Shown: in pieces, positions 13,729-59,173 of the stretch | How positions within the stretch are numbered: the first letter of the stretch is position 1 | Layout of the letters: each line of letters opens with the position of its first letter | Assembly: GCA_046757525.1 (NCBI GenBank) | Contig: JBHHYI010000001.1 | Coordinates: forward strand, 106,723-170,722 | Source: a bacterium | GTDB taxonomy: Bacteria; Zhuqueibacterota; Zhuqueibacteria; Oceanimicrobiales; Oceanimicrobiaceae | Direction: 5' to 3' | Length of the DNA: 64,000 bases | Position numbers and translations under genes: made by a program | Notes under the pieces: generated by a model | Told to the model about the DNA's origin: nothing | What the model saw: the letters and a program-made list of their open reading frames with translations, nothing else | Databases searched by the model: none

Positions 13729-14547
13729 TCAATACAACCACCCATCAGGTATTAGCTTGTAGTTAACCAAAAGACCCCATTTGTCGTTATAGCTTCCGTG
13801 TTTTGGTGATATGGGATCCAGGACGGAGTAGCCCTTCGAGAGTTTCATGCCTTCAAAAATACACCTGTACTTGGGCAGCAGACCGCCTACTTCGAGAATG
13901 TAACCAAGTCTCTTCAATATCGTCATATTGCCCATCTCCATGGCAAAAGTTATTACTGTTTTAAAGTCCATTTCCTCTCGCGAAAAAAAGATCGACCTTG
14001 CAATTTCGTCGATTCCTCCGCAGTGTTCAGGATGGTCAAGGCAGTCGGCTATTGTCTTGTTTTTGTCTGAGATTTTGACTCGTTCACCTTCGACTTCAAT
14101 ATCAACCACGCCAAAGAATTTTTTCTCGGCAAGCTGCACAAAGAGGTAGGTGTTGTGCATAATCTCGATTTTTTTCTTGGCCCTGGTTGTTGCAATGAAT
14201 GTCGTTGTTGGAATCTGATCGGAAAAGCCGTAATGGTTCAGGGCGGACCAGTAGCCAATGTAGTATGGTTCCACAAGCTTTGAGCCGATTACAAAGCTGT
14301 GCATGGCAAAACTTTCTGCACCCTTCACGCCGACGTCAAGGGGGACGATTGCATACAGACCTCTTTTTAACTTGAGAATCCATTTCTTCTTTACAAGGTG
14401 GTGTATAGTCTTGCTGGCAGAATTGCCAACCAGCGCTTTAACATCCTCAGTCGTGAAGGTTATTCTGTTGTCTCTCGCAAAGCTTGAGATGAGAAAGGAT
14501 TCCTTCTTGCTGAGACCCTGCCTATATTTTTCTGTCGTTGTGTCCAT
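13729..14547 (-). CDS. AbiEi-like (type IV toxin-antitoxin antitoxin family) winged-helix protein; orphan, with no adjacent nucleotidyltransferase toxin gene
   Basis: 272 aa. N-terminal region …FTTEDVKALVGNSASKTIHHLVKKKWILKLKRGLYAIVPLD matches the AbiEi_4 pattern (…RGxY motif). AT-richer than its neighbours. The 490 bp downstream on the minus strand holds no ORF. Confidence 0.5.
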   Translation of the reverse strand: MDTTTEKYRQGLSKKESFLISSFARDNRITFTTEDVKALVGNSASKTIHHLVKKKWILKLKRGLYAIVPLDVGVKGAESFAMHSFVIGSKLVEPYYIGYWSALNHYGFSDQIPTTTFIATTRAKKKIEIMHNTYLFVQLAEKKFFGVVDIEVEGERVKISDKNKTIADCLDHPEHCGGIDEIARSIFFSREEMDFKTVITFAMEMGNMTILKRLGYILEVGGLLPKYRCIFEGMKLSKGYSVLDPISPKHGSYNDKWGLLVNYKLIPDGWLY

Positions 14548-15497: not shown

Positions 15498-16298
15498 ATG
15501 GCAGCAATTATGGAAGAAAAATATACCATGGAGGGTTTAGAAACCTGTTTTGCAAGATTCAACGCCTCCATTGGTGATCTCCAAAAAGCTTACAACAAAA
15601 TCCAACAGCATCTGCATCACAGCGGGGATAGCCTGTCCCAGGAAACCCTGCTCTACATGTCACAGAACCTGGCGCACGGCATTCGCAATCCCCTTGGCGG
15701 CATTGGTAACCTATTGACTCTGCTTTCTCACGACTACGATCTGCAACAAACGGACAAAGTGCAGAGAATGCACGAGGGGATTGAGCGGATTGAGCGAATC
15801 ATCGCTAAACTCATTGAGTTTAGTTCGCCGGTGGGAACAAAAAAGAGACGCCACGAACTACAAGAGTTGGTTGACGCAGTTGTTCATTCTGTAAAACAGT
15901 CCTTGGATTCAAATCGGTCTGCGATTCAATTGTCTTTGAGAATGTGTAAGCGCGCCTTGCTGTTGGAAGCGGATGTCCCCAAGTTGACGCAGGCCCTGCA
16001 ACACATCGTACAAAACGCATTCGAAGCCATGCCGCACGGGGGCAAAATAAGCATCTGGCTGCGAGAAAGCAAAACGCCCAACTGCGCCGAATTGCTGATT
16101 TCAGATGAAGGCCCTGGAATCAAGGTGGATGAAATAGAGAGGTGCTTTGCACCATTTTACACCACGAAAGTCAATGGCATGGGGCTTGGTCTCCCTTTTG
16201 CCAGAAAGGTTTTTGAGAAGCACGGTGGAACCATGCTCTTAGAGAATAGAAAGCCAACCGGACTGAAAGTTAGAATCAAATTGCCAACTAAAAACTGA
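15498..16298 (+). CDS. Cytoplasmic sensor histidine kinase (HisKA + HATPase_c, no TM segments); FlgS/FleS/FlrB-like
   Basis: H-box HGIRNPLGGI. N and G boxes (…LISDEGPGI…, GMGLGLPFARKV). No hydrophobic helices. Sits directly upstream of a sigma-54 activator and flgB. Confidence 0.8.
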   Translation: MAAIMEEKYTMEGLETCFARFNASIGDLQKAYNKIQQHLHHSGDSLSQETLLYMSQNLAHGIRNPLGGIGNLLTLLSHDYDLQQTDKVQRMHEGIERIERIIAKLIEFSSPVGTKKRRHELQELVDAVVHSVKQSLDSNRSAIQLSLRMCKRALLLEADVPKLTQALQHIVQNAFEAMPHGGKISIWLRESKTPNCAELLISDEGPGIKVDEIERCFAPFYTTKVNGMGLGLPFARKVFEKHGGTMLLENRKPTGLKVRIKLPTKN

Positions 16299-16304
16299 AG
16301 GGCG

Positions 16305-17687
16305 GTGCAAATGAAAAAGATACTGGTTGTTGATGACGATCCTCTCATCGGCTTGTCCCTGAAAGAAGCCCTGAAAAGATGGGATTACGAGGTCACTCTG
16401 ATTAATGAAGGTAGCCGGGTAATAGATGCACTGCAAGGGCAAGGGTATGACATGGTTTTCACTGACATGCGCATGCCAAATGTGACAGGCATGGACGTGT
16501 TGGAAAAAGTGCAGCAGTTGTGCCCATCTACCGGCGTCATCATGATTACGGCCTATGGCAGCATCGCTCAGGCCGTGGAAGCCATGCAGAAAGGCGCCTT
16601 CGATTTCATAACCAAGCCCTATTCGCTCCAGAAAATCAAGGCGTGTTTGGACAAGTATTTCTGCATCGCAAAGAATCCGGACAGTGGCCAGGTTTCACGG
16701 GAGACCCGTCTCCCTGTCAAAACTCAGGAAAGATTTGTCGGGGAAAATGTAAGGGTGAAAGAATTGTTCAGGACCCTGGAGATGGCTTATCATAGCGATG
16801 CGCCGGTGTTTATTCAAGGCGAAAGCGGCACCGGCAAAGAGCTCATCGCTGAGGCCATTCACTGCCAAAGTGCACGCAAGGAAAAACCGTACTTGAGAAT
16901 CAACTGTGCCGCGCTTCCGGAAAATCTGGTAGAAAGCCAGCTTTTTGGCCACGAGAAAGGGGCCTTTACCGGGGCCATTAAGACTTTTAAAGGGTTGTTT
17001 GAAGAAGCTGACGGTGGCACCTTGCTTTTGGATGAGATCACCGAAATGCCTCTGAATCTGCAAGCGAAGTTTCTGCGGGTCCTGCAAGAGGGGGAGTTCT
17101 CCAGAGTGGGCAGTACGCGTACCAGAAGAACAGATGTGCGCATTGTTGCGACGACCAACAGCGATGTGCAAGAAGCGATCGCGCAGGGCAGATTTCGTCA
17201 GGATTTGTACTACCGCCTGGCGGTCCTCTTCTTGCGGGTTCCCCCTTTGCGCGAACGAAAGGATGACATCCCTTTGCTATGTGAATACTTTCTCAAAAAG
17301 TATGGTGAGAAATATTCTAACAAGGTCAAAGGCATAGACCAGGAGGCTATTAGATTCCTCTCTCAACATGCATGGCCTGGCAATGTGCGCGAATTGGAAA
17401 ACATCATCCAGAGAAGTGTGTTGAGTTGTCGGAATGGAGAAGAGATCGGTCTGCAGCACGTTCAAGAGTTGCTAACCGTTGACGCAGCGGCCGGAGGTGA
17501 ACGCTTGGGCTGCAACGAAGACCTGAGCCTGGAAGAAATGGAAAAGCGGCTAATCGCGGCGACGTTGCAAAGATACCGATTTCACAAAACCAGGACCGCG
17601 GAAATCCTGGGGGTTACACTGAAAACTTTGAGAAACAAAATTCTTCAATATGGTCTGGAAACCGTACCCGTAAAAACTACCACTTGA
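16305..17687 (+). CDS. Sigma-54-dependent response regulator (NtrC family; FlgR/FleR/FlrC-like flagellar activator)
   Basis: REC domain (VVDDDP…FTDMRMP), AAA+ domain with GESGTGKE and the GAFTGA motif, and a C-terminal Fis-type HTH. Confidence 0.9.
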   Translation: MQMKKILVVDDDPLIGLSLKEALKRWDYEVTLINEGSRVIDALQGQGYDMVFTDMRMPNVTGMDVLEKVQQLCPSTGVIMITAYGSIAQAVEAMQKGAFDFITKPYSLQKIKACLDKYFCIAKNPDSGQVSRETRLPVKTQERFVGENVRVKELFRTLEMAYHSDAPVFIQGESGTGKELIAEAIHCQSARKEKPYLRINCAALPENLVESQLFGHEKGAFTGAIKTFKGLFEEADGGTLLLDEITEMPLNLQAKFLRVLQEGEFSRVGSTRTRRTDVRIVATTNSDVQEAIAQGRFRQDLYYRLAVLFLRVPPLRERKDDIPLLCEYFLKKYGEKYSNKVKGIDQEAIRFLSQHAWPGNVRELENIIQRSVLSCRNGEEIGLQHVQELLTVDAAAGGERLGCNEDLSLEEMEKRLIAATLQRYRFHKTRTAEILGVTLKTLRNKILQYGLETVPVKTTT

Positions 17688-24506: not shown

Positions 24507-25043
24507 TTGGCAATGGTAAAGACCCTACTGATTTGGACACTCTTTTTTACAACGACCTTAGCTGGGTTCACCGCGGCCTTTTATTTCGGCCGCGACAAGA
24601 TATTGCCCCGGTCAAAGAGATCGCAAACACTGCGGGGTCTGAACATTGCGGTGGATGACTCTGCGTCAGGGGCGGGGGTCGACTCTCTAACGATGGTTAC
24701 AAACGAGCTTCTGACCCAACTGAAGGACTACGTCACGCAAGCAAAGCAAAATGCCAAGGTGATCGCGTTGCAGAAGAAACAGATAGAATTGTTGCGCGCC
24801 ACCAACGACTCCCTGCGGCAGCAGTTGCAAAGCCGCCAGCTTGCAAACAACAGGATTCAGGACCTTACCAAAACTTTAGGGGCCATGAAAGTAGACGTCC
24901 TGGAACCTATTCTTGAAAATTTGCCGGACGAGACCATTCAAATTCTGTACGACAAAGCCAAAAGTAAAGACAAAGAAAAGATTTTTAACGCGGTTAATCC
25001 CAAAAGAGCCGGCAGACTGCTAAGACTCATGACGAAAATCTGA
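24507..25043 (+). CDS. MotE/YlxF-like flagellar protein (MgtE-N-like domain)
   Basis: N-terminal TM, coiled coil, and C-terminal …PILENLPDETIQILYDKAKSKDKEKIFNAVNPKRAGRLL…. Sits at the ylxF position between fliJ and fliK. Confidence 0.5.
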   Translation: MAMVKTLLIWTLFFTTTLAGFTAAFYFGRDKILPRSKRSQTLRGLNIAVDDSASGAGVDSLTMVTNELLTQLKDYVTQAKQNAKVIALQKKQIELLRATNDSLRQQLQSRQLANNRIQDLTKTLGAMKVDVLEPILENLPDETIQILYDKAKSKDKEKIFNAVNPKRAGRLLRLMTKI

Positions 25044-25058: not shown

Positions 25059-27467
25059 ATGCTGCACCATGCACCCCATATTGAGAATCTGTTTGCCAGT
25101 GCCTCAGGTCTTCCCGCCCTCAAAAGCGAATTGCCTGATTCTATTGCTCCGGATTCATTCCACCTGATTTTGCAGCGATTTAAGGCCCTGGCTTTGCTCA
25201 CACGACCGGTGGGTAAAGTGGGCGTGACCGTGATCGACGGGCTTCCGGAAACCCATGCTCTGGCCAAAATACGTTCTGACAAGGGAAACAGAGCCTTGCG
25301 GCAAGACGGGCATTTAGTCTTAAACCTGATTCGGGAAGCTTTGGCACCCATGCTCAAATCCAGGGACCTTGGGATTCTCCAAGGAGAGACGGAAGCCTTT
25401 GATTTAACCCCTCAGAAGGATGCCGAACCTTCTTTCGAGGGTGAGGTTCACCACACGTTGCATTTGGAAACTTTAGGAGAGGCAACGGTAAGCCTGAAAA
25501 AAGCAGGGAATAAGGTACGGATCGAGATTGCGGTTGAGACGCTTCAGGCAAAAGACTGGTTAGAGGAGCAGTTAAAACACAGCGCCTTCAATAAAGAAGG
25601 CATCACCACCGAGGTTAGAGCCCTGCACTTGGAAAAGAGAGAGCTGGCGGCGCCGGCGTTGAAACCTGGAACCAAGAGTTTTGCAACGGGTCTCGAGGCT
25701 TTAAGCGCTGACAGAGCACCGAAAGCAGTCCTTTTGCACGGTCGACCAGCGACGCGTCTCAGCGACAACAGGAATGCAACGAGGACACACAGCAAAGGCC
25801 TTTTTGCAAATGCGAACACGGAAGACACAGATTCTGTTGCGGTGCCTGAGTCGCAAGACCGTCCGGAGGCACGAGGCCCCAAACGAGTACGCGTAACCAA
25901 AGTAAGGCACGCAAAAGGGCATGCCGTTGCCCTGAACCAGGCGCTACGCAAAGCAAAGGCACGCCGGAGGCCCGAGAAGTTAGTCAGCCGGGTTGAAACG
26001 GGGCCAACAGTCGCCGGATCAAACCGGAAGCCAAAGGGTTCTGCAGGCAAAGCGGCGCCGGTGCAGACGCACGACCGCGGCATTTTGCTTTCCGCGGAAA
26101 AAGCGTTGGAACAGGCGACCAAAGGTGCTGAGGTCTTTGCTGCTAAGCCGGAGGCAGGGAGGATCAAAAGTTCAATGGCTTCTGTGCCTTTGTCCGGCCG
26201 CGCGCCTCATGGCGCTGCAGGAAACGCGGGTCCCGCAAGCATCTTACCAGAGAAGCCCGTGTTGACCCCTGCCACGGGCGGTGACCAGAGTGCAATCACC
26301 AAAGGTGCGAACGTTCAGGCTTTGAATAAGATGGAGGAATTCATCCTTAACGAGGCGCAAATTACTTCCCGTTTTCCCATTTCCGGGAAAACTCATCTGA
26401 AGATGCAGGTCGCAGAATTGGGAGAGGTTTCCGTTGAAATAACCAATGCCGCGCAAAAAGTCGGCGTTGAAATAGGTGTTGAGAGCAACAGGGCGAAGAG
26501 CTTGATAGCCGGGCATTTGAAGCATTTGACGTCACAGCTTGACCGCCTGGAAATAAAAGTTGCGTACCGTCCCTTGGAAAAATCTCACGACCCCGGGCCA
26601 CACAACAAAAGGGAAAGATTCTCGCTGCGGGCCGGCACAGCCACTGACAAGAAAACGCCAGAGACCCCCAGGAATCCAACCGAAATATTCAGGGCGGGTC
26701 TAAATGAGGGAAGCAAAACGAAAAAGGGCGTCACCAAAAAAATGCAGGCCTCGACTTCAGACAGCGGCAAAGCGACGACCAGGCTCCAGGACCCTCAGGC
26801 GGGCTTTGGGAAACGCGCTGACCCTGTGGAAGAGTCGTCGGAGGATGGCGGAAAAGAATCTCGCGGCTTTCACGAACAAAAGTCTTCCCTGCAAAGCAAC
26901 GAGTTTGGCGTGGGCGCTAAACACAAACGTGGTGAGAAGGTCTCTGGCGTTGAAACGGCGCCGTTAACCAGACACGGAAACTTTCCGACTGAAAACAAAC
27001 TGGTTGCACCCGTAAAAGTAAGACAATCCCAGGTGCCAGAGATGATTCATCGCATCGCCAAAATGGTAGAAAACAGATTACAGGCTTCCAATTCCAGAAT
27101 CGAAGTTCAGTTGGACGTGGAAACCCTGGGTCTGATGAAGGTCGATGCTACCAGGCATCATGACTCCATTCATTTGCAGATTCAAGTTGAAAATGAAGAG
27201 GCCAAACGCTGGGTAGAGAGCCACTTGCGTCCCTTGAACAACCACATGACCAGGGAAGGCTTCCGAGTGGACAATCTGCAAGTGTCTGTCCAGGGTGAGA
27301 GGTCTGAAGGTCAGAGCAAACAAGGCAGATTCTACCATCCCTCGAAATTTGCCGGGGAGAAGCGCTACGCTACCCCGTCCGGAGTTGCCGGGGCGGCCGC
27401 AGAGAGTGCTCCGGTATACTCGGAGCAACGGAGCTTTGGTTACAACACTCTCGAGGTCTGGGGTTGA
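25059..27467 (+). CDS. fliK: Flagellar hook-length control protein FliK, enlarged (802 aa) with three Flg_hook-like repeats
   Basis: Flg_hook-like segments at about 25440-25635, 26361-26573 and 27090-27293. They are separated by K/R/A-rich linkers. Confidence 0.75.
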   Translation: MLHHAPHIENLFASASGLPALKSELPDSIAPDSFHLILQRFKALALLTRPVGKVGVTVIDGLPETHALAKIRSDKGNRALRQDGHLVLNLIREALAPMLKSRDLGILQGETEAFDLTPQKDAEPSFEGEVHHTLHLETLGEATVSLKKAGNKVRIEIAVETLQAKDWLEEQLKHSAFNKEGITTEVRALHLEKRELAAPALKPGTKSFATGLEALSADRAPKAVLLHGRPATRLSDNRNATRTHSKGLFANANTEDTDSVAVPESQDRPEARGPKRVRVTKVRHAKGHAVALNQALRKAKARRRPEKLVSRVETGPTVAGSNRKPKGSAGKAAPVQTHDRGILLSAEKALEQATKGAEVFAAKPEAGRIKSSMASVPLSGRAPHGAAGNAGPASILPEKPVLTPATGGDQSAITKGANVQALNKMEEFILNEAQITSRFPISGKTHLKMQVAELGEVSVEITNAAQKVGVEIGVESNRAKSLIAGHLKHLTSQLDRLEIKVAYRPLEKSHDPGPHNKRERFSLRAGTATDKKTPETPRNPTEIFRAGLNEGSKTKKGVTKKMQASTSDSGKATTRLQDPQAGFGKRADPVEESSEDGGKESRGFHEQKSSLQSNEFGVGAKHKRGEKVSGVETAPLTRHGNFPTENKLVAPVKVRQSQVPEMIHRIAKMVENRLQASNSRIEVQLDVETLGLMKVDATRHHDSIHLQIQVENEEAKRWVESHLRPLNNHMTREGFRVDNLQVSVQGERSEGQSKQGRFYHPSKFAGEKRYATPSGVAGAAAESAPVYSEQRSFGYNTLEVWG

Positions 27468-27555: not shown

Positions 27556-28236
27556 ATGTTAAGCACGGGACCGGTAGGACCAAATGCTACCCAGAACGTC
27601 CTGGGAGGTTCGCAAGACATACTGGGCAAGGATGATTTTTTGAGGATATTGGTTTCACAATTGCGCAATCAGGACCCAATAAATCCGATCAAGAGCGAAG
27701 AGTTTGCCGCACAACTGGCCCAGTTCAGCTCGGTAGAACAGCTTCAGAATATCAATGCAAATCTGGAGAACAGCATCCAAACGAATCTTTTGCTCAACCA
27801 GGCAATCAACAACACCATGGCCACCACGCTCATAGGGAAGAACGTCAAAGCGTTTGGTAACGCGGTCTCCCTGGCTGACGGAGAATCGGTTGGCCTGCAT
27901 TACAGCTTGTCTTCTCCAGCAGAAAACGTAACCATTCAAATCATGGACAGCAATGGTACGGTTGTTCGAACTGTTGAACTGAAGGGTCAAGCCCAGGGCG
28001 AGCAAACATTTGAGTGGGACGGAAAAGACGCCGAAGGCAATGTTTTAGCGGACGGCAAGTACACGTTTGCCATCAACGCCACAGATGGGAACGGCGATGG
28101 TGTGGCCGCGACCACCTTCATCAGCGGTGTCATCGATGGGATTAAATACGAAAACGGCAGTGCGTTGCTGCTACTTGGAGACCTGGAAGTGAATCTGTCG
28201 GATGTCGTGGAAATCAGTACCCCTGAGATTCCCTAA
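27556..28236 (+). CDS. flgD: Flagellar hook capping/assembly protein FlgD
   Basis: N-terminal …GKDDFLRILVSQLRNQDPINP… FlgD motif, with a C-terminal FlgD Ig-like/tudor region. Confidence 0.85.
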   Translation: MLSTGPVGPNATQNVLGGSQDILGKDDFLRILVSQLRNQDPINPIKSEEFAAQLAQFSSVEQLQNINANLENSIQTNLLLNQAINNTMATTLIGKNVKAFGNAVSLADGESVGLHYSLSSPAENVTIQIMDSNGTVVRTVELKGQAQGEQTFEWDGKDAEGNVLADGKYTFAINATDGNGDGVAATTFISGVIDGIKYENGSALLLLGDLEVNLSDVVEISTPEIP

Positions 28237-28770: not shown

Positions 28771-30414
28771 ATGATGCGCTCATTATTTTCAGGTGTGTCT
28801 GGTTTACGTAACCAGCAAATTAAGATGGACGTCATTGGTAATAACATTGCAAATGTGAACACCATAGGCTTCAAGGGATCGAAGGTGAATTTCCTCGAGG
28901 AAGTGGGACAAGTATTAGCCAGAGGGGGCACCTCGGTGGCAGGCGGTTCTTTCAATGCAGTGCAAGTTGGCCTGGGGGTAAAAACCGGCAGCGTGGATCG
29001 GCAGTATTCCCAGGGGATTCTTCAAACCACCGGAAATGTGACTGACCTGGGGCTTCAGGGCAATGGCTTCTTCGTGGTTGGTGACTCTGACCGACAGTTC
29101 TTTACCCGGGCCGGGAACTTTCATTACGACAGTCAGGGCCGGTTGATGACTACCACCGGACTCTTTGTCAAGGGCTGGATGGCAGATCCAACAGGGGAAT
29201 TATCCAAGAGCTCGACCCTTACTGAGATTGTTGTAGACCCGTCCTTGGTGTCTCCCGCCAAGGCCACAACGAAAATCTCCCTTGCCGGCAACTTAGATGC
29301 CAGCGCGGTTCCGGTACAAGAGGTCTGGACGGCGGGTAAGGTGTTGACGGTGGCTGCAAGCGGAAACCCGGCGGTGGGAACCACCGACCTGAATGCGTTG
29401 ACTCAAACCACAACGCCTCTGGTTGCCGGAGACACGATTACCATTACTGGTACAAATCCGGACGGTTCGGCGGTAAGCGGTACTTTCACCTACGGCGCCA
29501 GCAACGACGGAACTACCGTCGATGATTTCCTGGCTGTCATAAATTCCGCTTACAGCGGAGCGACTGCGACATTAGACAGCGGCAAAATCGTCCTGACCGA
29601 TGACAACTTTGGCGCCAGCGATTTGACCATAGTCCTGGCTAACGGGGCTTCGAACACCGGGGTCATTTCCTTACCGAGCTTTGTGAATTCAGCCGAAGGC
29701 TTCACGCCGAAAACGACCGCCTCGACGGTCATTTATGACAGTTTGGGCACGCCACACACCGCCAACATTGAATTCACGAAAACAGAAAACGAGCGCGAAT
29801 GGCGCTTCACGGTGACTCTGTCTGGTAGCGAAACCGTCTTAGAAGGGGGTTCGGGAACTTTAACGTTCAAACCTGATGGTTCAATAGAAACAATTGCTTA
29901 CGACGGTGCTGAATCTGCCTTCAAATTCGATCCCAACAACGGAGCCAATCCCGTAGCCATAAACTTGGATTTTGGCAACGCGTCTGGCGTCAATGGTCTG
30001 ACCCAGTTCGATGGCAGTTCAAACGTCATCATCCCGACTCAAGACGGACAACCACACGGAGCCTTGTCATCGCTGTCGATTGACGAAAGTGGTCGAATTA
30101 TTGGTTCGTTCACCAACGGCAATAATCGTTTGATTGCTCAGATAGCGCTGGCGAAGTTCAACAACCCGGGCGGTCTGGTTCACCTGGGCAACAACATATT
30201 TGAAAAGACCGAGGGATCGGGTAGCCCGCTGATTGGCAAAGCTGGCGAGGATATCAGCACGGCCGTCATCTCGGGTAGTCTGGAATCTTCGAATGTGGAT
30301 TTAGCCGAGGAGTTCTCTGAAATGATCATTGCGCAGCGAGCCTTTCAGGCGAACGCGCGAACGATCACAGTTAGCGATCAATTCCTCAACGAAGTCGTTC
30401 AGTTGAAGAGATAA
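28771..30414 (+). CDS. flgE: Flagellar hook protein FlgE
   Basis: 547 aa. N-terminal FSGVSGLRNQQ…IANVNT, C-terminal …AQRAFQANARTITVSDQ…. Confidence 0.9.
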   Translation: MMRSLFSGVSGLRNQQIKMDVIGNNIANVNTIGFKGSKVNFLEEVGQVLARGGTSVAGGSFNAVQVGLGVKTGSVDRQYSQGILQTTGNVTDLGLQGNGFFVVGDSDRQFFTRAGNFHYDSQGRLMTTTGLFVKGWMADPTGELSKSSTLTEIVVDPSLVSPAKATTKISLAGNLDASAVPVQEVWTAGKVLTVAASGNPAVGTTDLNALTQTTTPLVAGDTITITGTNPDGSAVSGTFTYGASNDGTTVDDFLAVINSAYSGATATLDSGKIVLTDDNFGASDLTIVLANGASNTGVISLPSFVNSAEGFTPKTTASTVIYDSLGTPHTANIEFTKTENEREWRFTVTLSGSETVLEGGSGTLTFKPDGSIETIAYDGAESAFKFDPNNGANPVAINLDFGNASGVNGLTQFDGSSNVIIPTQDGQPHGALSSLSIDESGRIIGSFTNGNNRLIAQIALAKFNNPGGLVHLGNNIFEKTEGSGSPLIGKAGEDISTAVISGSLESSNVDLAEEFSEMIIAQRAFQANARTITVSDQFLNEVVQLKR

Positions 30415-32037: not shown

Positions 32038-32544
32038 ATGGCAGACGACACCAATAAAAATAAAGAATTAGAAAAAACATCCGATGTAAAGAAGGGAAGG
32101 AATGGGAAAATTCTAAAAATACTGTTGATCCCGATCATTTTGGTTGTGCAGGCTGGCGTAGCCTATTTTGTGGTGGTTAACTATTTAATCGGTAAACCTG
32201 AGAATCCTCAAAGCAAACCCTCAAAGCAGCACAACCAGGAGGTAGGGCAGTTCTTAGAAATTAAGGACATCGTCGTCAATCCGGCGGGCACCCTGGGAAG
32301 AAGGTTTCTGGTCGCTGAAATGGGATTGGAAACACATAATCCTGATTTAATCGAAGAGGCTGAAACCAAGAGAATCTGGATAAGAGACGCAGTCTTATCC
32401 TTTTTGCGAGAACAGACTTCCGAAGAACTGCTCGATCTTTCCAAGAGGGAGGCCCTGAAAGCAAAACTTTTGCAGGTCGTCAACAAAAAACTGACGAAAG
32501 CTAAATTTGAGAAGTTGTACTTCACCAAATACATCATGCAATGA
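32038..32544 (+). CDS. fliL: Flagellar basal body-associated protein FliL
   Basis: 168 aa, single TM, FliL family. Confidence 0.8.
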   Translation: MADDTNKNKELEKTSDVKKGRNGKILKILLIPIILVVQAGVAYFVVVNYLIGKPENPQSKPSKQHNQEVGQFLEIKDIVVNPAGTLGRRFLVAEMGLETHNPDLIEEAETKRIWIRDAVLSFLREQTSEELLDLSKREALKAKLLQVVNKKLTKAKFEKLYFTKYIMQ

Positions 32545-33011
32545 CCCAAGAGGCGCTTATGGCAGAAGAGATGGAACAAGTGGCCGACACTCCGGCACCA
32601 GGAGATGCTTTGGCAGAACAAGGTGCTGCTGACCCACCCGCTGAACAGGCTGATACCAGTTCGGCCGCTGAGAAACCGGAATCTATTGCAAAGCCGGAGA
32701 GGCCTGACAGTGAAAGCGATGACAACGGCCAGGAACTCCTGGGGTTCGATCAGAATAATCTGGGGCTGCTCATGGACGTTTCGCTGCAAGTTACCGTGGA
32801 GCTTGGTCGCAAAGAAATGCAGTTCGGGGAAATATTGCAGTTGGGCAAGGGTTCAGTAATCGAGTTGAATAAGATGGCCGAAGATCCCATCGCCATTTAC
32901 GTAAACCAGAGCAAAATAGCACAAGGCGAGGTCGTGGTGGTTGACGAGCATTTTGGAGTCCGCATTACGAAGTTGATGAACCGTTCCAACGTGATACGCA
33001 ACCTGGGTTGA
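32541..33011 (+). CDS. fliN: Flagellar motor switch protein FliN (SpoA domain) with an acidic N-terminal extension
   Basis: C-terminal SpoA domain …LQVTVELGRKEMQFGEILQLGKGSVIELN…. Confidence 0.85.
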   Translation: MTQEALMAEEMEQVADTPAPGDALAEQGAADPPAEQADTSSAAEKPESIAKPERPDSESDDNGQELLGFDQNNLGLLMDVSLQVTVELGRKEMQFGEILQLGKGSVIELNKMAEDPIAIYVNQSKIAQGEVVVVDEHFGVRITKLMNRSNVIRNLG

Positions 33012-34595: not shown

Positions 34596-35381
34596 ATGCT
34601 CAACGAAATATTAGCACTGTCGAATCAACAATTCGTCGCTTTTTTTTTGGCCTTTTTGCGTATATTGGCGCTGATTTTTGTTGCACCAATTTTAGGCTCC
34701 AGGTCGATTCCAATTCAAAGCAAGATTTTTTTTGCGATGTTTTTGTCGATTTGTGTTTGGCCGCTGATCAAGAACCAGCCAGTGACGCCGAATTTAGAGT
34801 TGACCGCGCTGACCTTTCTGTCGGCGCGGGAAGTATTGTTGGGGTTGTTCTTTGGGTACAATGCCAAGCTGATCTTCGAGGGTTTTCAGTTTGCAGGTCG
34901 ATTGATTGGAAATCAAATGGGGTTAGGAGTTGCCGAGTTAATAGACCCGGAGAGCGGTGTACAGGTCTCTTCAATAGGCAACTTCTATAACCTCATCGGT
35001 GTTGTTCTTTTCTTAACGCTGAACGGGCATCACTACCTTCTCACGGCGCTGTACAAAAGCTTCGAGATAGCCCCGGTGGGTTCAGGCCGATTGGTGAGTG
35101 TTCTCGCAAAAGAGCGACTGCTGTCGAATTTTGACGACATTTTCACCGTTGCCATTAAGCTTGCGGCGCCATCGATGGCCGTTTTGTTTCTTATTGAAGT
35201 CGGCATGGGAATTTTAGCAAGGATTGTTCCGCAAATGAATATATTTTTTATCGGGTTACCCGTTAGACTCGGGTTAGGGATGTTCATTCTCGTGGCTTCA
35301 CTCCCGATGTTTTATATTCTTTTCCAGACTATTCTTAAAGCATGGCAAGGAAAAGTCACTGGTTTAATGCTGCTATTTTAG
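34596..35381 (+). CDS. fliR: Flagellar biosynthesis protein FliR
   Basis: 261 aa, polytopic membrane protein after fliQ. Confidence 0.85.
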   Translation: MLNEILALSNQQFVAFFLAFLRILALIFVAPILGSRSIPIQSKIFFAMFLSICVWPLIKNQPVTPNLELTALTFLSAREVLLGLFFGYNAKLIFEGFQFAGRLIGNQMGLGVAELIDPESGVQVSSIGNFYNLIGVVLFLTLNGHHYLLTALYKSFEIAPVGSGRLVSVLAKERLLSNFDDIFTVAIKLAAPSMAVLFLIEVGMGILARIVPQMNIFFIGLPVRLGLGMFILVASLPMFYILFQTILKAWQGKVTGLMLLF

Positions 35382-35392
35382 GAGTAATCATC

Positions 35393-36283
35393 ATGGAATT
35401 AATTATTGAAGAATTAGATTCTAAGCTCATTGGGAAGAAATTAGGGCAAAACCTCTACAATTCAAAGGGGAGCCTGCTGTTGCGCAAGGGGGCAGAAATC
35501 GAGATGTTGCATTTTGCCCATCTCAAGAGTCTGGGTTACCAGAGTGTCTATGTGCTCAATGGTAATTCCGCAGATTTGGACCAGGATGGGGAAATTATTT
35601 CCGGGCACCTGCGTGCGAAGGGGCCGCACGAGCTCAAAGGCATCTTTAGAAAGTTGCTGACGGATGACAGAAGACAGATTGCAACCGCGAAAAAAGAGGT
35701 TTTCGTGTTAGCGGAAAATATACTCAAATCAGTTAATTTGAAAAAGCACGAGGGATCGAAGATCCTGGACTTAAAAAGACAGGGGGATTATCTCTGTCAA
35801 CATTCAATCAATGTGGCTGCTTACTCAATCCTCATCGGCACCTGTCTGTCCTACCATCAGTTGAAATTGTCTGATTTGGCCGTGGCAGCTTTATTGCACG
35901 ATTTTGGCATGCTATTCATAGACGAATCGCTGTTAAATAAGTCGACGGCACTAACTGAAAGCGAATCAGAATTAATCAAAGAGCACACGGTAAAGGGCTT
36001 TCAACACCTGGGCCGCAATTGTTCCTTTAAAGGCCTGGTTACGGTCGTGGCCTTGCAACATCATGAACGCTACGATGGCCTTGGTTATCCCAAAGGTTTA
36101 GTCGGCGAGGAACCGCACGAATTTTCGCGTATCGTTGCCCTGGCCAATTTTTTTGACGCGTACACCTCAGACCGACCCTATCGCCGCATGCATACCATTG
36201 ACGCTGCGTTGCAGGTCATTCAAGATGAAGTGGGCACGGCATTTGATCCTAACCTGGTGCAGCATTTCTTGAAGTATTTCTAA
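35393..36283 (+). CDS. HD-GYP domain protein (putative c-di-GMP phosphodiesterase) embedded between fliR and flhB
   Basis: HD motif …LLHDFGM… and HHERYDGLGYP (the GYP signature). Start trimmed to ATG 35393 (MELIIEEL…), which has an AGGAG box. Confidence 0.75.
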   Translation: MELIIEELDSKLIGKKLGQNLYNSKGSLLLRKGAEIEMLHFAHLKSLGYQSVYVLNGNSADLDQDGEIISGHLRAKGPHELKGIFRKLLTDDRRQIATAKKEVFVLAENILKSVNLKKHEGSKILDLKRQGDYLCQHSINVAAYSILIGTCLSYHQLKLSDLAVAALLHDFGMLFIDESLLNKSTALTESESELIKEHTVKGFQHLGRNCSFKGLVTVVALQHHERYDGLGYPKGLVGEEPHEFSRIVALANFFDAYTSDRPYRRMHTIDAALQVIQDEVGTAFDPNLVQHFLKYF

Positions 36284-36292
36284 TCGAAAATC

Positions 36293-37360
36293 ATGGCGGA
36301 AGATTCTTTTCAGGAAAAAACCGAACAGGCAACTCCAAAACAGTTAGAGAAAGCCCGTGAAGAAGGAAATGTTGCCAAAAGCGCAGAACTGAACTCCGTT
36401 TTTGTCCTTTTTATTGGGCTCATGATCCTCTATTTCTTGAGTGGAAAGATTTTAAGTCAATCCGTCGACCTCTTCAAGTTTTTTTACAGTCAGGCAGGTC
36501 ACGTCGCGATCAATCAAAGCAGCATCCTGTACTACTTTACCCTGTGTTTAAAATTTTTGGTTAGTCTGGTGACGCCTCTCGTGATTGGTCTCATAGTTGT
36601 GGGCTTAGGGGTAAATTGGGCACAGTTTGGATTTTTGTTTAGCACCAAGCCGCTTACACCAAACTTCCAAAAAATCAATCCCATTTCAGGACTCAAGAAT
36701 TTTGTTTCCCTCAAGTCGTTGGTCGAGTTGTTGAAAGGAATCATCAAGATCACCGTTGTAGGGCTTATCGCCTACCGTACGATTTCGAACCAGCAGGAAC
36801 GCTACCTTCTTCTGATGAATGAAAGCGTTGGCAATATTTTGAAATTCATCGGCTCCACAGTGTTCAAGGTGGCTATGAATACGACCGCGGCTTTGTTGTT
36901 TTTAGCTGTTTTAGATTTCTTATATCAGAGGTGGCAGTACAAAAAGGACCTGATGATGTCCAAACAGGATGTGAAAGAAGAGCAGAAGGAATCTGAAGGG
37001 AACCCGCTGATTAAGAGCGCCATCCGCAGCCTGCAACGGGCACGTGCCAGACAGCGCATGATGGATGCTGTGCCCCAGGCAGATGTGGTCGTGACCAACC
37101 CGACCCGCTTAGCCATCGCACTGAAGTATGATCCGGAGGCTATGGACGCGCCAGTGGTCCTGGCAAAAGGCTCCAGACTCATCGCTGCCAGAATTAAAGA
37201 AATCGCGCAAAAACACGGTATCCCAATCTATGAGAACAAACCTCTGGCACAATCGCTGTTCAAAATCAGCAAGGTTGGTCAACAGATTCCTTTTGAACTT
37301 TTTCACGTTGTGGCAGAAGTGTTCGCTTACGTTTATCAGCTAAAACAGAACAAGAACTAA
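36293..37360 (+). CDS. flhB: Flagellar biosynthesis protein FlhB
   Basis: 355 aa. NPTRLA autocleavage motif (…VVTNPTRLAIAL…). Confidence 0.9.
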   Translation: MAEDSFQEKTEQATPKQLEKAREEGNVAKSAELNSVFVLFIGLMILYFLSGKILSQSVDLFKFFYSQAGHVAINQSSILYYFTLCLKFLVSLVTPLVIGLIVVGLGVNWAQFGFLFSTKPLTPNFQKINPISGLKNFVSLKSLVELLKGIIKITVVGLIAYRTISNQQERYLLLMNESVGNILKFIGSTVFKVAMNTTAALLFLAVLDFLYQRWQYKKDLMMSKQDVKEEQKESEGNPLIKSAIRSLQRARARQRMMDAVPQADVVVTNPTRLAIALKYDPEAMDAPVVLAKGSRLIAARIKEIAQKHGIPIYENKPLAQSLFKISKVGQQIPFELFHVVAEVFAYVYQLKQNKN

Positions 37361-41676: not shown

Positions 41677-41946
41677 ATGTCCGATTTGGTGATTCCCAGG
41701 AATTTACCAAACGCCAATCCCATCGACAAGGTTGAACAAACCCAAAAGTCGCAACAAAACGACGAGCAGAAAAAAACAGACCAGGACAAGCGCAACAAGA
41801 AGCGTCATAAACAACAGAAAGCTCCGGAACAAGACCAGGACCGCGTCTTCATCTCATCACCCACTGCGGTTACAAAAGCCCGTAAGCAGGGAAAAAAAGG
41901 GCCCAAAAAGCTGGGCAAAGGGGACATAATAGATATTCAAGTATGA
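41677..41946 (+). CDS. Hypothetical small basic (K/Q-rich) protein downstream of fliA
   Basis: 89 aa, ATG with GGAAGG upstream. Its stop overlaps the next start (ATGA). Confidence 0.4.
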   Translation: MSDLVIPRNLPNANPIDKVEQTQKSQQNDEQKKTDQDKRNKKRHKQQKAPEQDQDRVFISSPTAVTKARKQGKKGPKKLGKGDIIDIQV

Positions 41947-43004
41947 ATTGTGCGTTTCACAGAATGATGGCCTATTTGGCACTTCCCGTTTGGACCTTGT
42001 GTTCTTGCGCAGTTGGCGCCAGAGGTGCAGAGCTTTTGGACATCCGCACCGGGTTTCACCAGTCTTACTCGCGGTTGGTCCTGCAGTTTGATTCAAAGGT
42101 AAACTACGAGGTGTCAAAGGAGCTCGAGGAGGGCAAGATCGCGGTTAACCTTCAGCCGGTGACAATCACCTCGGATTTTGGACCAACCCCGGTGGAAGCC
42201 GATGACCTGTTTTTGCGACAAGTCCATTACAGACATTCTTCACACCGGCTAACGGTGACGTTATTGTTGAGAACCTCGAACATCCGGTTGGTTGAATACA
42301 CTTTGGAAAGACCGTACCGGCTGGTCATCGACCTGCACCAGGGCAATTTCTCTGAAGAACTGAAGCAGGACAGCTCGTTCGTTCCTCCTGCACCTGCGGC
42401 TCCGGAAATGCCAGTGGCAACCGACTCGTCTTCTTTAACACTGATAGACACGCTCAAGGATAGCGAAGCCACTCTGCACACAAGCGAGATTCTTTTGAAC
42501 CATCCTCCAATGAAAAGCTCGGTTCAAATCGGGCCCCGTGGCAGCAGAATCCGTATGTTTCTGGGGGTCACAATCATTCTTGTCTTAATAGATATTTTGA
42601 TCTTTCTTTTTTACAAGATAAGGAAGAGCCGAATCCACAACTCTTCGGAAGATTCAAAAAAAACACAAACAACGGTCGCGCGCCCCGGGGCTGAAGCCAA
42701 CCCCCACTTCAAAGCCGTGTTGGGTATGATGGTGAAAGATGAGCACACCCACAAGACCAGTGTCGCCGATTTCCGAAAGGCAAATGGTCAGCAGGCTGCG
42801 GACCTGTCGGCCCGACTTGAATCTTTGTCCAGAGTGCTCTTTTCAGGACGTTCCGCTACCCGTCTCGGTCTCGATCCTGAGGACCTCAGTGAGGGCATGG
42901 GAGAGTTGGAAGCTGCTTCAGGCATCCCCAAGGAATTCTGGATCGGTCGAGATGGCATCGAGTTTGTCAACAACATCAAGAAACTCAACATGAACATGAA
43001 TTGA
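41943..43004 (+). CDS. Membrane protein with an N-terminal periplasmic AMIN domain, a Pro-rich linker, one TM helix and a ~140-aa cytoplasmic tail
   Basis: Signal-like N-terminus. AMIN-like region …YSRLVLQFDSKVNYEV…HRLTVTLLLRTSNIRLVEYTLERPYRLVIDLHQ. TM helix MFLGVTIILVLIDILIFLFYKI. Confidence 0.5.
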   Translation: MNCAFHRMMAYLALPVWTLCSCAVGARGAELLDIRTGFHQSYSRLVLQFDSKVNYEVSKELEEGKIAVNLQPVTITSDFGPTPVEADDLFLRQVHYRHSSHRLTVTLLLRTSNIRLVEYTLERPYRLVIDLHQGNFSEELKQDSSFVPPAPAAPEMPVATDSSSLTLIDTLKDSEATLHTSEILLNHPPMKSSVQIGPRGSRIRMFLGVTIILVLIDILIFLFYKIRKSRIHNSSEDSKKTQTTVARPGAEANPHFKAVLGMMVKDEHTHKTSVADFRKANGQQAADLSARLESLSRVLFSGRSATRLGLDPEDLSEGMGELEAASGIPKEFWIGRDGIEFVNNIKKLNMNMN

Positions 43005-55050: not shown

Positions 55051-57981
55051 ATGGCTAAAACACGCTACTTTTTAATTGCGGTGATTGTTGCGTTTTCGCT
55101 GTTTTTCTTGCACCAGGAAACACGTGCGCAGTCCACTTATGTTGGCACGGAGACGTGCAACAATTGCCACGGCAAAGAAGCCAATTTTGCGGGCAATCAA
55201 TGGGCTACCTGGGTCAAGACCCGGCATAACATGAAATGGCGGGATCCTGACGAAGGGTTAGGCGTGGTTGCCCATGATTACTTCGTCAACAACCTGGATC
55301 TGTCTACGGATCCGGACTTCGCTGCTTTCGGGGCGAACGCGCCCAAGCTCAGCTTCGACCCCTCTGATCCGGCGGATTCCACCGACGGTAAGAGCGGCTA
55401 CCGCGTCACGGTTGGTGCCACAACCTACGAGGTGAACTGGACGCTGGGTGGTACCGGTGTCTGGAAACAGCGTTACATGACGGAGATTGGCAACAGCATC
55501 TACATTCTGCCCATTCAGTACAATGAAACAACCGACGACTGGGTGCCTTATCATCCCCCCACCTGGTATGACAGCAACAACCAGCCGTTGGCAGAGGTTC
55601 CCAAGGCGGACTCTTACCAACGCCGCTGTATCGGCTGCCACTCGGTCAATCCTGTGGTGAGCTTCAACGATAGCACTGGAGAGTGGACCGCCACGGTGAC
55701 CGAGCGCAATATTGGCTGCGAAGACTGCCACGGTCCCGGAAGTGAACACGCTCAAACCACGGACAAGACCAAGATCATAAATCCCGAAACCGATCTCACC
55801 AACAAAGACAGACGCCTGGAAGTCTGCGGCGCCTGCCACGGCCGCGGTTCCAGCACCGCCACTCTGGGCGGCAAAAACTTTGGCTTCCCTTACAACGATG
55901 CCAATGGCCACTATCGACCTGGCGAGGTATTGGCCGATTATTACAACCAAACGACGTCGTCTTCTAACTTTTGGCCCAATGAACAGCCTTACGGCCGGAA
56001 TTCCAAATCGCACCACCAACAATATCTCGACTTCTTGACCAGCGCCCATTACAGCAATCCGTTCGAGGAGATCAACTGCTGGACCTGTCACGATCCACAT
56101 GGGGGCACGGGCCAGGAGTTTCTAATCCGGGACAAGCTGGTGGAAGACGGCGTGGAGATCGCTACGACCAACGATGACAACACCCTTTGCCTGGCTTGTC
56201 ACGCGGAATTCGAGCCCTTCGATCTGATTAGCAAAGAAATGGTAGCAGACCCCACGGGAGCCAATTTGGAAACCATCAAAGCCGTGGTAGAAACTCACAC
56301 GAAGCATCCTTATGATCCTACGGGCACTGGGGCCAGTAGGTGCACCAAGTGCCACGATCCAAAGGTCGCCAAGTCGGCGATCGAATACGACATCCATTCC
56401 CACTCCTTTTGGGTGATGTCCCCGGAACAAACGCTTACCTATCAGCCTGAAGGCGGGGTGCCAAATTCCTGTGCGGTGAGCTGCCACAGAAAGGCCGAGT
56501 TCCCGAATTTTGGCATGGACCTGTCTGGCGACGTTCTCAAGACCTGGACAGAATCTACCGATATCGCCCTGGCCGATACTCTGCAACGCTTTTTGGGTGC
56601 TGGAGGCTATTGGTGGGATACGGATCCGTCTGGCAACATGGGTGATCCCCTGTTGGTCAAGCGGGTCGATACCATGCCAACCATCGATGGTGACGATTCC
56701 GATGCGGCCTGGGCCGGCGCACAAGAAACGACCCTGGCCAACGGTGCTACCATCAAGGCTGTGAACAATTCGGACATGGTGGCCTTTTTGGTCAAGTGGA
56801 GCGATCCTACCATGAGCATGACGCGCGGCGGCTCCTGGCAGTGGGTGAGCGGCGCCTGGGTTAAAACCAATGCCACGGAAGAAGGCGGTGCTAATGAAGA
56901 TCGCTTCAACATCTTGTGGAACATCAACATAAGTGAATTTGGCCAGAGAGGCTGTGCCACCAAATGTCATGGTCAGGAAGGCAATGCCACAGGGGCTTAC
57001 CTGGATAAAGTGGGCGAATATGCCGACATGTGGCACATGAAGGCCTCACGGGCTCTGCCCGCGATCAGCTCTTCACAATCCGACAATTTGACTTTCAGCA
57101 CTTCTGACGCGACCGACCAGCATCAGGTGACCAGCGGAACCATCATTCTCAACGGTTACGCCGACGACAAACTCACGGCAGCCCGACTGGATCCGGCTTA
57201 CCCATTCGATCCGGAGGACGGCGGACGTCATGGTGACAGCGGCACGGCCATGTTTCGCCACAACCGCAACTCCGACAAAACCGCTCCCATGTACATTGAA
57301 ACCGCACCAACCAACTACATCGACGGCATGGTGCTCTACCAGTCGGAAATTGACAACGGTGAAGCGGTGGAAGTTGCCAGTTTATCTACCCAGCAGATCG
57401 ACCAGGCCTGGGCGGCGTACGCTGCGGTCAACGCAGTGGTGCCTGAGCGGATCATGCAACAGCCGGCTGGCAGCCGCGGCGATGTGCGGGAAGCGGCAAA
57501 ATGGGAAAACGGCCAGTGGACCGCAGAATATGAACGCGCCCTGGTGACTAACAACGTCGACGACGTCCAATTCGACGACTTGACCAAGGGCTACCTCTTT
57601 GGAACGTCTATCATGGACAACTCGGGTGGCGATAAGCACAACATCTCTGCGCGCTTAAATGAATTGCGCTTCGACGAGTTTGTTGGCATCGAAACGCCCG
57701 GCGCCGACAATCTGCCATCCCAGTATGCGTTGTTGCAAAACTATCCCAATCCATTCAATCCCACGACCAAAATACGCTTTACCCTCAGGAAAAGTGGATT
57801 GGTGAAGCTTAGAGTTTTCAACATGTTAGGTCAGCAGGTCAAAACGCTGGTCTATCAGCAACTTCCGGCCGGTCAGTATGAGGTTCCATTTGATGCGTCG
57901 CAATTCTCTTCCGGTTTGTATTTGTACAGACTTGAAGTGAACGGTTTCACGCAGGTGAAAAAAATGGTGTTGGCCAAGTAA
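55051..57981 (+). CDS. Secreted multiheme cytochrome c (7 CXXCH + 2 CX3CH) with a type IX secretion system C-terminal sorting domain
   Basis: Signal peptide MAKTRYFLIAVIVAFSLFFLHQETRAQS. Heme motifs CNNCH, CIGCH, CEDCH, CGACH, CWTCH, CLACH, CTKCH, CAVSCH and CATKCH. C-terminal …NYPNPFNPTTKIRFTL…YLYRLEVNGFTQVKKMVLAK, the Por_Secre_tail signature. Confidence 0.85.
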   Translation: MAKTRYFLIAVIVAFSLFFLHQETRAQSTYVGTETCNNCHGKEANFAGNQWATWVKTRHNMKWRDPDEGLGVVAHDYFVNNLDLSTDPDFAAFGANAPKLSFDPSDPADSTDGKSGYRVTVGATTYEVNWTLGGTGVWKQRYMTEIGNSIYILPIQYNETTDDWVPYHPPTWYDSNNQPLAEVPKADSYQRRCIGCHSVNPVVSFNDSTGEWTATVTERNIGCEDCHGPGSEHAQTTDKTKIINPETDLTNKDRRLEVCGACHGRGSSTATLGGKNFGFPYNDANGHYRPGEVLADYYNQTTSSSNFWPNEQPYGRNSKSHHQQYLDFLTSAHYSNPFEEINCWTCHDPHGGTGQEFLIRDKLVEDGVEIATTNDDNTLCLACHAEFEPFDLISKEMVADPTGANLETIKAVVETHTKHPYDPTGTGASRCTKCHDPKVAKSAIEYDIHSHSFWVMSPEQTLTYQPEGGVPNSCAVSCHRKAEFPNFGMDLSGDVLKTWTESTDIALADTLQRFLGAGGYWWDTDPSGNMGDPLLVKRVDTMPTIDGDDSDAAWAGAQETTLANGATIKAVNNSDMVAFLVKWSDPTMSMTRGGSWQWVSGAWVKTNATEEGGANEDRFNILWNINISEFGQRGCATKCHGQEGNATGAYLDKVGEYADMWHMKASRALPAISSSQSDNLTFSTSDATDQHQVTSGTIILNGYADDKLTAARLDPAYPFDPEDGGRHGDSGTAMFRHNRNSDKTAPMYIETAPTNYIDGMVLYQSEIDNGEAVEVASLSTQQIDQAWAAYAAVNAVVPERIMQQPAGSRGDVREAAKWENGQWTAEYERALVTNNVDDVQFDDLTKGYLFGTSIMDNSGGDKHNISARLNELRFDEFVGIETPGADNLPSQYALLQNYPNPFNPTTKIRFTLRKSGLVKLRVFNMLGQQVKTLVYQQLPAGQYEVPFDASQFSSGLYLYRLEVNGFTQVKKMVLAK

Positions 57982-58028
57982 ATTCATGCTCTCTCTCCTA
58001 TAATCACAATCATTCTCTGTTTGGAGAC

Positions 58029-58063
58029 AAGGGTCGGCCGCTCAGGTCGACCCTTATTTTAAT
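58029..58063 (+). terminator. Rho-independent terminator after the cytochrome gene
   Basis: AAGGGTCG-(loop)-CGACCCTT followed by ATTTTAATT. Confidence 0.7.
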
Positions 58064-58246
58064 TCCTTAAACCGAAATAAAGACCATGGCGGCGGAACTG
58101 CGGGAGAAGCATGAAAAAGGAAGCCAATGAACCCGGAAGTAGCTCTTTGAAAACGCAGGGATTTCTCACGCAATCAGGGGCAAGGAGGCCCCAAAAATCT
58201 ACTAATGTGAAGTTAAAAACGAAACAGATTCTCTGGAGTAGCATCT

Positions 58247-58606
58247 GTGGAAGCAAGGGTCTTACTCGTTTGTAATGATGAAAATTGCCGAAAAGGGTTG
58301 ATGCATTTGTTCAAGGGGAGCGGGTTGTCCATTCACGGTGTCTTAGGGGATGCCGATCTGCTTCTCGAAATCTTGGACCGCGAATATGATTTGGTGATCT
58401 ACGACTTGGAATCATCCAACAAGGATGGGCTCAAATTAATCAAAATAATGCGAAGAATTAGGCCCAAGGTTCCGCTGCTGGTCATTTCCAGCGATCCTTC
58501 AAAGAAGCTGGGCGGTAAGGTTTTGCAAGAGGGTGTGACTTATTATTCCGTAAAGCCGATTGAACCTGCTGGTTTTAAGGAGGCCGTGTTGACTATCCTC
58601 AAGTGA
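58247..58606 (+). CDS. Atypical CheY-like receiver domain protein (acidic pocket NDE instead of DD), first gene of the respiratory operon
   Basis: …VLLVCNDEN…DLVIYDLESSNKDGL…LLVISSD…VKP. Overlaps the next gene by 4 nt. Confidence 0.55.
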   Translation: MEARVLLVCNDENCRKGLMHLFKGSGLSIHGVLGDADLLLEILDREYDLVIYDLESSNKDGLKLIKIMRRIRPKVPLLVISSDPSKKLGGKVLQEGVTYYSVKPIEPAGFKEAVLTILK

Positions 58607-58653
58607 CCAACCTGACAAGGACTCGTTGCCTGTGGATTACAATTTGGACTAAA

Positions 58654-59154: not shown

Positions 59155-59173
59155 GACTTACTAAAGATTGGTT

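Follow-up and report, generated by a model that had tools for sequence, protein, structure and literature searches.

The window analysed here, a 64,000-nucleotide stretch of contig JBHHYI010000001.1 from a bacterium of the Oceanimicrobiaceae, contains a flagellar gene cluster of ∼36 kb that includes fliK, the gene for the hook-length control protein. The fliK open reading frame (ORF) is an uninterrupted frame of 802 codons at 25059..27467 on the + strand and sits amid fliI-fliJ-orf178-fliK-flgD-flg_new-flgE. Because of this synteny, and because an NCBI metagenome-assembled genome (MAG) has an identical protein named FliK, the gene is a genuine fliK. Its product carries three domains of the Flg_hook (PF02120, T3S4-type) family, designated R1, R2 and R3 from the N-terminus, and the last of these is set apart from the other two by its conservation and by the tail that follows it. 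The gene and the parts of its product are as follows.

25059..27467, + strand: fliK, 802-aa hook-length control protein; ATG at 25059, stop at 27465-27467 (from the ORF, PF02120 and synteny).
25158..25172, + strand: N-terminal export region, with F34-H-L-I-L38 as candidate gate-recognition motif (suggested by alignment and position).
25281..25637, + strand: R1 module, aa 75-193; predicted helix 75-98, strands 130-136, 140-149 and 152-159, helix 162-174, strand 182-188; predicted local distance difference test (pLDDT) 78-93.
25638..26279, + strand: linker 1, aa 194-407; basic, Ala/Pro/Gly-rich, predicted disordered, poorly conserved.
26280..26573, + strand: R2 module, aa 408-505; predicted helix 408-438, strands 444-451, 455-464 and 467-474, helix 477-496, short strand 502-504; pLDDT 71-87.
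26574..27023, + strand: linker 2, aa 506-655; basic, Ser/Thr/Lys-rich, predicted disordered.
27024..27293, + strand: R3 module, the conserved orthologous T3S4/Flg_hook switch domain, aa 656-745; predicted helix 656-673, strands 680-687, 691-700 and 703-710, helix 713-732, strand 737-744; pLDDT 93-95.
27294..27464, + strand: C-terminal tail, aa 746-802; predicted disordered (pLDDT <50 for 751-791), ending FGYNTLEVWG (aa 793-802, nucleotides 27435-27464).

A preliminary description of this DNA, made from the sequence alone, had proposed three segments with the Flg_hook signature, and residues 128-193, 435-505 and 678-745 all show the motif it quoted: LHLETLGEATVSL..VRIEIAVE..AKDWLEEQL in R1, MQVAELGEVSVEI..VGVEIGVE..AKSLIAGHL in R2 and LDVETLGLMKVDA..IHLQIQVE..AKRWVESHL in R3. 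The PF02120 hidden Markov model (HMM) gave 103.1 bits on the whole protein, over three stretches. When the modules were scanned singly as 110-aa pieces against the same model (gathering score 29.8), R3 scored 55.0 bits (E 7.3e-15) and matched profile positions 5-82 of 85, and R2 scored 37.4 bits (E 2.3e-9), both above the gathering score; R1 scored 28.0 bits (E 1.9e-6), which is 1.8 bits under it. R1 and R2 cover only profile positions ∼13-72. These values contradict the case in which the C-terminal segment alone scores and the other two are chance matches of low-complexity sequence, and R1 reached 39.5 bits with the local HMM that was used to count copies in relatives (see below). In BLASTP comparisons R1 matched R2 at 32% identity (E 1e-10) and R3 at 30% identity (E 4e-7), no significant match was obtained between R2 and R3, and other FliKs were matched by R2 in their C-terminal domains, with E-values of 1e-9 to 1e-10. 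With mutual identities of 26-38%, the three modules are, by sequence comparison, old paralogs. Tandem Repeats Finder reported no DNA-level tandem repeat within fliK. The long linkers had also been described as basic, and calculated isoelectric points (pI) bear this out: the segment from residue 194 to 434 (L1) has a pI of 10.6 and a net charge of +18, and that from 506 to 670 (L2) a pI of 9.95 and a net charge of +10. A needle-length determinant of the YscP/SctP injectisome type was considered as an alternative identity and rejected; the yscP-type model TIGR02514 gave 32 bits on R2 (residues 436-500) against a cut-off of 76.5, and the neighboring genes are all flagellar.

The full-length protein was modelled with AlphaFold2 from 26 sequences, in alignments that included sister copies of the domain, and structure searches of the PDB were run with this model and with a model of R1 alone. 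All three segments are predicted to adopt an α-β-β-β-α-β fold, with the elements in the same order and of near-identical length. The core of Salmonella FliKC is likewise composed of two helices and a four-stranded sheet (PMC6972891). R1 has two peculiarities, a ∼30-aa loop between helix 1 and the sheet and a helix 2 of 13 residues rather than 20. The top PDB matches of the full model were 2RRL, the FliK C-terminal domain, followed by 5CUK, the PscP switch domain; the R1-only model (mean pLDDT 79.7) found 5CUK as its top match (probability 1.00, E 2.4e-3, 66 columns, 3.4 Å). A phmmer search of the whole protein against PDB sequences gave no match, and 2RRL was reached by sequence through a profile alone: a profile of the family's C-terminal domains matches Salmonella FliK-C at E 2.4e-12. 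Residues 191-344, 352-410 and 526-648, within the linkers, have pLDDT values <50, and the ruler region between the N-terminus and R3 is long, disordered over these residues, basic and rich in Ala, Pro, Gly and Ser. Near the N-terminus, F34HLIL38 aligns with an F...L pair kept at ∼35 and ∼39 of the 26-sequence consensus, a short pattern at the place where a gate-recognition motif would be expected. Early flagellar substrates possess a short hydrophobic gate-recognition motif at ∼36-40 that docks on FlhBc (PMC8983047).

Homologs were collected by an exhaustive phmmer search over 1.84 billion representatives, which yielded 165 matches at E<=1e-3. In every case the match is anchored on the last ∼150 residues; the nearest homolog shares 39% identity, limited to the C-terminal ∼155 aa, and no close ortholog of the 802-aa protein is present among the 165. 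R3 matches the C-terminal domains of relatives with 70-82 bits and 40-47% identity, and R1 and R2 reach only ∼30-42 bits against anything. When HMMs were built separately from the relatives' C-terminal and inner copies, R3 scored 104 bits with the C-copy model and 50 with the inner-copy model; the corresponding pairs were 30 and 39 for R1 and 40 and 36 for R2. In an 80-column profile R1 and R2 keep the core columns G26, V30, I43, V45, L54 and L58, and the C-copy-specific residues at columns R34, E49, R52, P60, E63, K74 and S78 are substituted or absent in both. Each of columns 34, 49, 52, 60, 63, 74 and 78 shows conservation of at least 87% across 30 C-copies but is kept in only 5-40% of the inner copies of relatives. 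Pro725 of R3 is His in both R1 and R2.

The C-terminal tail distinguishes R3 further. A terminal motif of the form FGYN[ST]xEVW[AG], or xQTxEIWA, is kept in all 25 aligned relatives, and E[IVL]W[AGVIL] is found at the extreme C-terminus of 23 of 129 homologs and internally in none. Within the 802-aa protein the conserved terminal tail follows R3 only, with no tail motif behind R1 or R2. The residues of Salmonella FliK that are proximal to FlhBc, Val302 and Ile304 (PMC6972891), have as equivalents Ala/Val in R1, Val/Val in R2 and Met/Val in R3. The preliminary description had spoken of multiple switch domains. Three T3S4-type domains are indeed present according to the HMM scores and the predicted fold, but their equivalence as switches is not supported, as R3 alone is orthologous and tailed.

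The arrangement had been called unusual, which is correct relative to model FliKs (Salmonella FliK consists of FliKN, a linker and one FliKC; PMC6972891) but not relative to the protein's relatives, among which multi-copy architectures recur, in several uncultured lineages. Copies were counted in the best 150 of the 165 phmmer matches, a set that favors multi-copy proteins, with a local iterated HMM trained on matches including inner copies, and counts of weak inner copies (14-30 bits) are upper estimates. By this count 118 proteins have one copy, 23 have two, six have three, one has five and one has six. At least two copies at 25 bits or more are present in 16 of the 30 nearest representatives and in 8 of the next 120. 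Pfam counts five copies in the protein P0112 and two each in P0002, P0005, P0008, P0028 and P0039; at E<=1e-3 it sees one stretch in P0003, P0007, P0010 and P0013. P0112, from JGI metagenome 3300014198, lies in a true fliJ...fliK-flgD-flgE locus, and its five copies score 61-76 bits each and are 56-74% identical to one another. A FliK from a Moorella sp. MAG (MEW8957616.1) has two copies that are 75% identical, FliKs from Ignavibacteria/Bacteroidota MAGs (HEY9187072.1 and HQJ74209.1) have two each, and those from KSB1/Caldithrix (MCH9006533.1 and TDI87982.1) have three by the local HMM. These proteins resemble the 802-aa protein in being annotated as FliK, in having at least two Flg_hook domains and in the strong conservation of the last copy; many relatives also carry fragmentary remnants of inner copies (14-25 bits). 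Because the copies are 56-75% identical in the P0112 and Moorella FliKs, as opposed to 26-38% in the 802-aa protein, the duplications are, on sequence divergence, of differing ages, and they are of repeated origin.

Rates of change within the relatives are also asymmetric. Between orthologs compared in pairs, identity is 59-76% for the C-copy, 37-44% for the inner copy and 27-34% for the linkers, and the inner copies are always retained as ungapped units. P0013 and P0023 are 81-90% identical where they align, yet one of the two has a complete inner copy more than the other. FliKs with one, two and three copies have median lengths of 530, 646 and 768 aa. In a separate word-indexed search the full protein matched only itself, and a 50-sequence profile of the C-terminal domain matched three fragments only. 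Although any Pfam scan would show the domain matches and the protein already bears the name FliK, a literature search found no paper on FliKs with several T3S4/Flg_hook domains; that search covered few subscription journals, and its outcome is absence of evidence only. Multi-T3S4 FliK is a real, recurrent variant of the FliK family for which no description was found in papers.

A related FliK in L001 1-1449 (JBHHWX010000012.1; the same protein as P0011), the one relative that a scan of genome contigs yielded, contains at least three tandem ruler repeats of ∼70 aa, which are not inner T3S4 copies and follow the pattern …ADESLKG.KRSRPNN.QGI..LKS.LKE…; the contig ends within the repeats and cuts fliK. 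They constitute a second, different mode of ruler lengthening in the same clade.

The interpretation of these modules draws on three other genes of the window, which code for the cap and the main component of the hook and for the expected target of FliK.

27556..28236, + strand: flgD, hook cap, directly 3' of fliK (FlgD, FlgD_ig and FlgD_tudor domains).
28771..30414, + strand: flgE, hook protein of 547 aa, the structure measured by FliK (Flg_bb_rod, D1, FlgE_D2 and Flg_bbr_C domains).
36293..37360, + strand: flhB, expected FliK target (PF01312, 418 bits; VVVTNPTRLAIAL with NPTR at the autocleavage site).

We put at roughly 60% the probability that the protein comprises one C-terminal switch unit, R3 with its tail, plus two fold-retaining ruler or pause modules, R1 and R2. 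The identity of the gene, the homology of the three folds, the asymmetry of their conservation, and the recurrence and copy-number variation in relatives are observed; that R1 and R2 fold in vivo, pause secretion, affect hook length and are unable to switch is what we infer. In Salmonella the FliKC core binds FlhBc and the length of the ruler sets hook length (PMC6972891). A 2026 model proposes that the T3S4 fold halts secretion for a time, during which the last five residues can act on, or eject, FlhB-CCD (PMC13344023). By analogy with Salmonella, the R3 fold and the disordered tail ending in ...LEVWG would act on FlhB and end hook export. R1 and R2 are ancient, diverged paralogs that sit within the ruler, separated by long basic linkers of predicted disorder, and they have lost both the surface residues and the terminal tail by which the switch copy is marked. 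Since their hydrophobic core is kept, folding in the cytoplasm is probable for both, and each would add ∼120-200 residues of ruler length. Because FliK must unfold for export, each folded module would impose a pause; as plugs that need unfolding at the export gate, R1 and R2 would probably slow or pace FliK secretion without flipping the switch. Such pauses could tune secretion speed, which is decisive in the 2026 model (PMC13344023).

Because ruler length sets hook length in Salmonella, the inner modules and linkers would also lengthen the measured distance. Salmonella residues 302-304 are taken to correspond to ∼90 nm of rod plus hook (PMC6972891), which by our own arithmetic scales to ∼0.30 nm per residue. 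With β-strand 2 of each module (residues ∼145, ∼460 and ∼694) placed at the export gate, the N-terminus would lie at a scaled distance of ∼43 nm for R1, ∼137 nm for R2 and ∼207 nm for R3. If this scaling holds, R3 would engage at ∼200 nm, resulting in unusually long hooks.

Salmonella enterica FliK (405 aa; 2RRL) and the 802-aa protein are alike in the position of the gene beside flgD and flgE and in their layout, in which an N-terminal export/ruler region leads through flexible linker(s) to a T3S4 core at the C-terminus, behind which comes a disordered tail with a conserved end. In contrast to Salmonella FliK, the present protein is twice as long and has two extra T3S4-fold modules within its ruler, and β-strand 2 of its switch domain is at ∼residue 694 rather than at 302-304. 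The proline of the L-x-P-x-x-LG motif (Salmonella P296, in our own numbering of the 2RRL chain) is Val in R3, Leu in R1 and Val in R2, and the linkers are basic, whereas those of Salmonella FliK are simply Pro-rich. The injectisome rulers YscP and PscP (SctP; PscP 5CUK) share the T3S4 fold, but the gene context here is entirely flagellar. The YscP ruler region has internal repeats whose number alters needle length, the closest functional precedent for a modular ruler; the units repeated there are short stretches of the ruler and are not known to be copies of the switch domain.

Several observations weigh against this reading of one switch unit plus two ruler or pause modules. As no close ortholog of the 802-aa protein was found, the rate comparison comes from sister proteins and not from this fliK itself, and the AlphaFold fold of the inner modules may be biased by the sister copies in the alignment. 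R1 and R2 might still bind FlhB to some residual extent, given that the Val302/Ile304 equivalents are kept in their sequences. The inner copies also form a loosely coherent subfamily, 15 of 20 grouping with their own type in a leave-one-out comparison. An AK[DE]WL helix start and a helix 2 of reduced length are common to them, and their conservation is slightly better than that of the linkers, which hints at a function of their own beyond length.

The first alternative, which we consider unlikely, is that all three T3S4 folds engage FlhB, such that several measuring points or switch chances alter the precision or the set-point of hook length. It agrees with the prediction of the fold for all three copies, with the hydrophobic β-strand 2 residues equivalent to Val302/Ile304, and with P0112, in which five well-conserved copies occur in a real fliK locus. 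However, R1 and R2 are without the terminal tail that is held responsible for acting on FlhB-CCD (PMC13344023), and they have lost the residues specific to C-copies. Inner copies moreover diverge at roughly the rate of linkers, and proteins that are nearly identical can differ by the gain or loss of one. If a switch at residue ∼145 were active, it should fire before hook building has begun.

Recruitment of the inner copies as binding modules for FlgD, FlgE, or a component of the export apparatus or chaperone set, in the manner of the unrelated Salmonella FliKN, is quite unlikely in our estimation. R1 does belong to the N-terminal part of the protein, which in Salmonella FliK is the region that binds FlgD and FlgE (PMC6972891), and both the weak inner-copy signature (AK[DE]WL with the shortened helix 2) and the constant retention of inner copies as ungapped units would suit a binding role. 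A fixed partner is nevertheless a poor fit to the low conservation of inner copies (37-44%) and to a number that ranges from 1 to 5 across relatives, and the gene neighborhood suggests no partner.

It is distinctly improbable that the inner copies are neutral relics, decaying duplicates tolerated as filler. Their fast divergence, the truncated helix 2 of R1, Pfam scores near or below threshold, and the fragmentary 14-25-bit remnants in many relatives are what decay would produce, but the hydrophobic core is intact and the fold is confidently predicted (pLDDT 71-93) despite ∼30% identity. The same expansion has also arisen repeatedly in different phyla, which suggests selection.

We regard as highly doubtful a further reading, in which the three T3S4 folds are successive checkpoints on one ruler. 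Each fold would then be a timed secretion arrest or a staged change of specificity (rod, hook, filament), with R1 roughly coinciding with rod completion and with very long hooks as a possible outcome. If this were true, the copy-number series, from 1 to 5 or more, would give evolution a means of adjusting hook length and the timing of the switch.

An artefact, whether a chance low-complexity match, a mis-assembly or a frameshift fusion of neighboring genes, is barely conceivable even though the source is a MAG, given independent E-values of 1.9e-6 to 7e-15 and the same architecture in many independent assemblies; a recent duplication or assembly artefact is ruled out by the 26-38% identity of the copies, the lack of a DNA repeat and the single uninterrupted frame.

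The first genes of the flagellar cluster, at 15498-17687, encode a histidine kinase and, as its neighbor, a sigma-54 response regulator. The order that follows is flgB-flgC-?-fliE-F-G-H-I-J-orf178-fliK-flgD-flg_new-flgE-motA-motB-fliL-fliN, in which the flg_new gene between flgD and flgE belongs to TIGR02530, and it continues as fliO-P-Q-R-(HD)-flhB-flhA-flhF-fliA...flgF-G-A-H-I-J-N-K-L. A single flhB is present in the window, with no additional FlhB-like targets that could pair with the extra FliK domains. The FlhB autocleavage loop (VVVTNPTRLAIAL) reads NPTR where the canonical sequence is NPTH; FliK is believed to target FlhB's C-terminal domain after cleavage, and here NPTR co-occurs with a three-fold FliK in one organism. 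Between fliR and flhB, within the run of export-gate genes, lies a gene for an HD_5/HD-GYP-like protein (35342-36283, + strand; PF13487, 99 bits) that resembles the phosphodiesterase part of NosR-family cyclic di-GMP phosphodiesterase response regulators. The 178-aa ORF between fliJ and fliK (24507-25043, + strand) is hydrophobic at its N-terminus and matches no Pfam family, and its one NCBIfam match is below threshold; its place is that of the ylxF-type gene, itself poorly understood, in fla operons. No fliM was recognized at 32038-33011 (+ strand), between fliL and the 156-aa fliN-type gene, or among the other window ORFs that were scanned, which were a subset. A 353-aa ORF between fliA and flgF (41943-43004, + strand) has no family match, and the interval between flhF and fliA is too small for flhG.

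Directly downstream of flgL, the segment 50947-54709 (+ strand) encodes one TPR-only protein and two TPR/family-2 glycosyltransferase proteins, which could be involved in flagellin glycosylation. It is followed at 55051-63704 (+ strand) by a gene for a multihaem cytochrome (976 aa) that combines an EB_dh domain with a C-terminal sorting tail of the type IX secretion system (T9SS), and by genes for a molybdopterin oxidoreductase and an NrfD-type membrane subunit; together they look like an extracellular or periplasmic respiratory module. Upstream, an AbiEi-type antitoxin gene (13729-14547, − strand) adjoins the flagellar regulators on the opposite strand. The presence of L- and P-ring genes indicates that the host is diderm, and the T9SS-tailed multihaem cytochrome, together with named relatives from KSB1, Calditrichota and Caldithrix, points to a member of the FCB group related to KSB1/Calditrichota.

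Among secreted molecular rulers FliK is the standard case, and ideas of how it works are still under revision. Natural rulers with two to five or more T3S4 folds, of which the last alone is tied to a tail, are test cases for the 2026 model (PMC13344023), because they separate the fold as a brake from the tail as a trigger. Longer hooks, or a switch with changed timing, would be predicted from them. They also indicate that the length of a ruler can evolve through duplication of the switch domain itself. If the inner copies are inert, the protein would instead represent a tidy case of domain duplication and loss of subfunction in an uncultured lineage.

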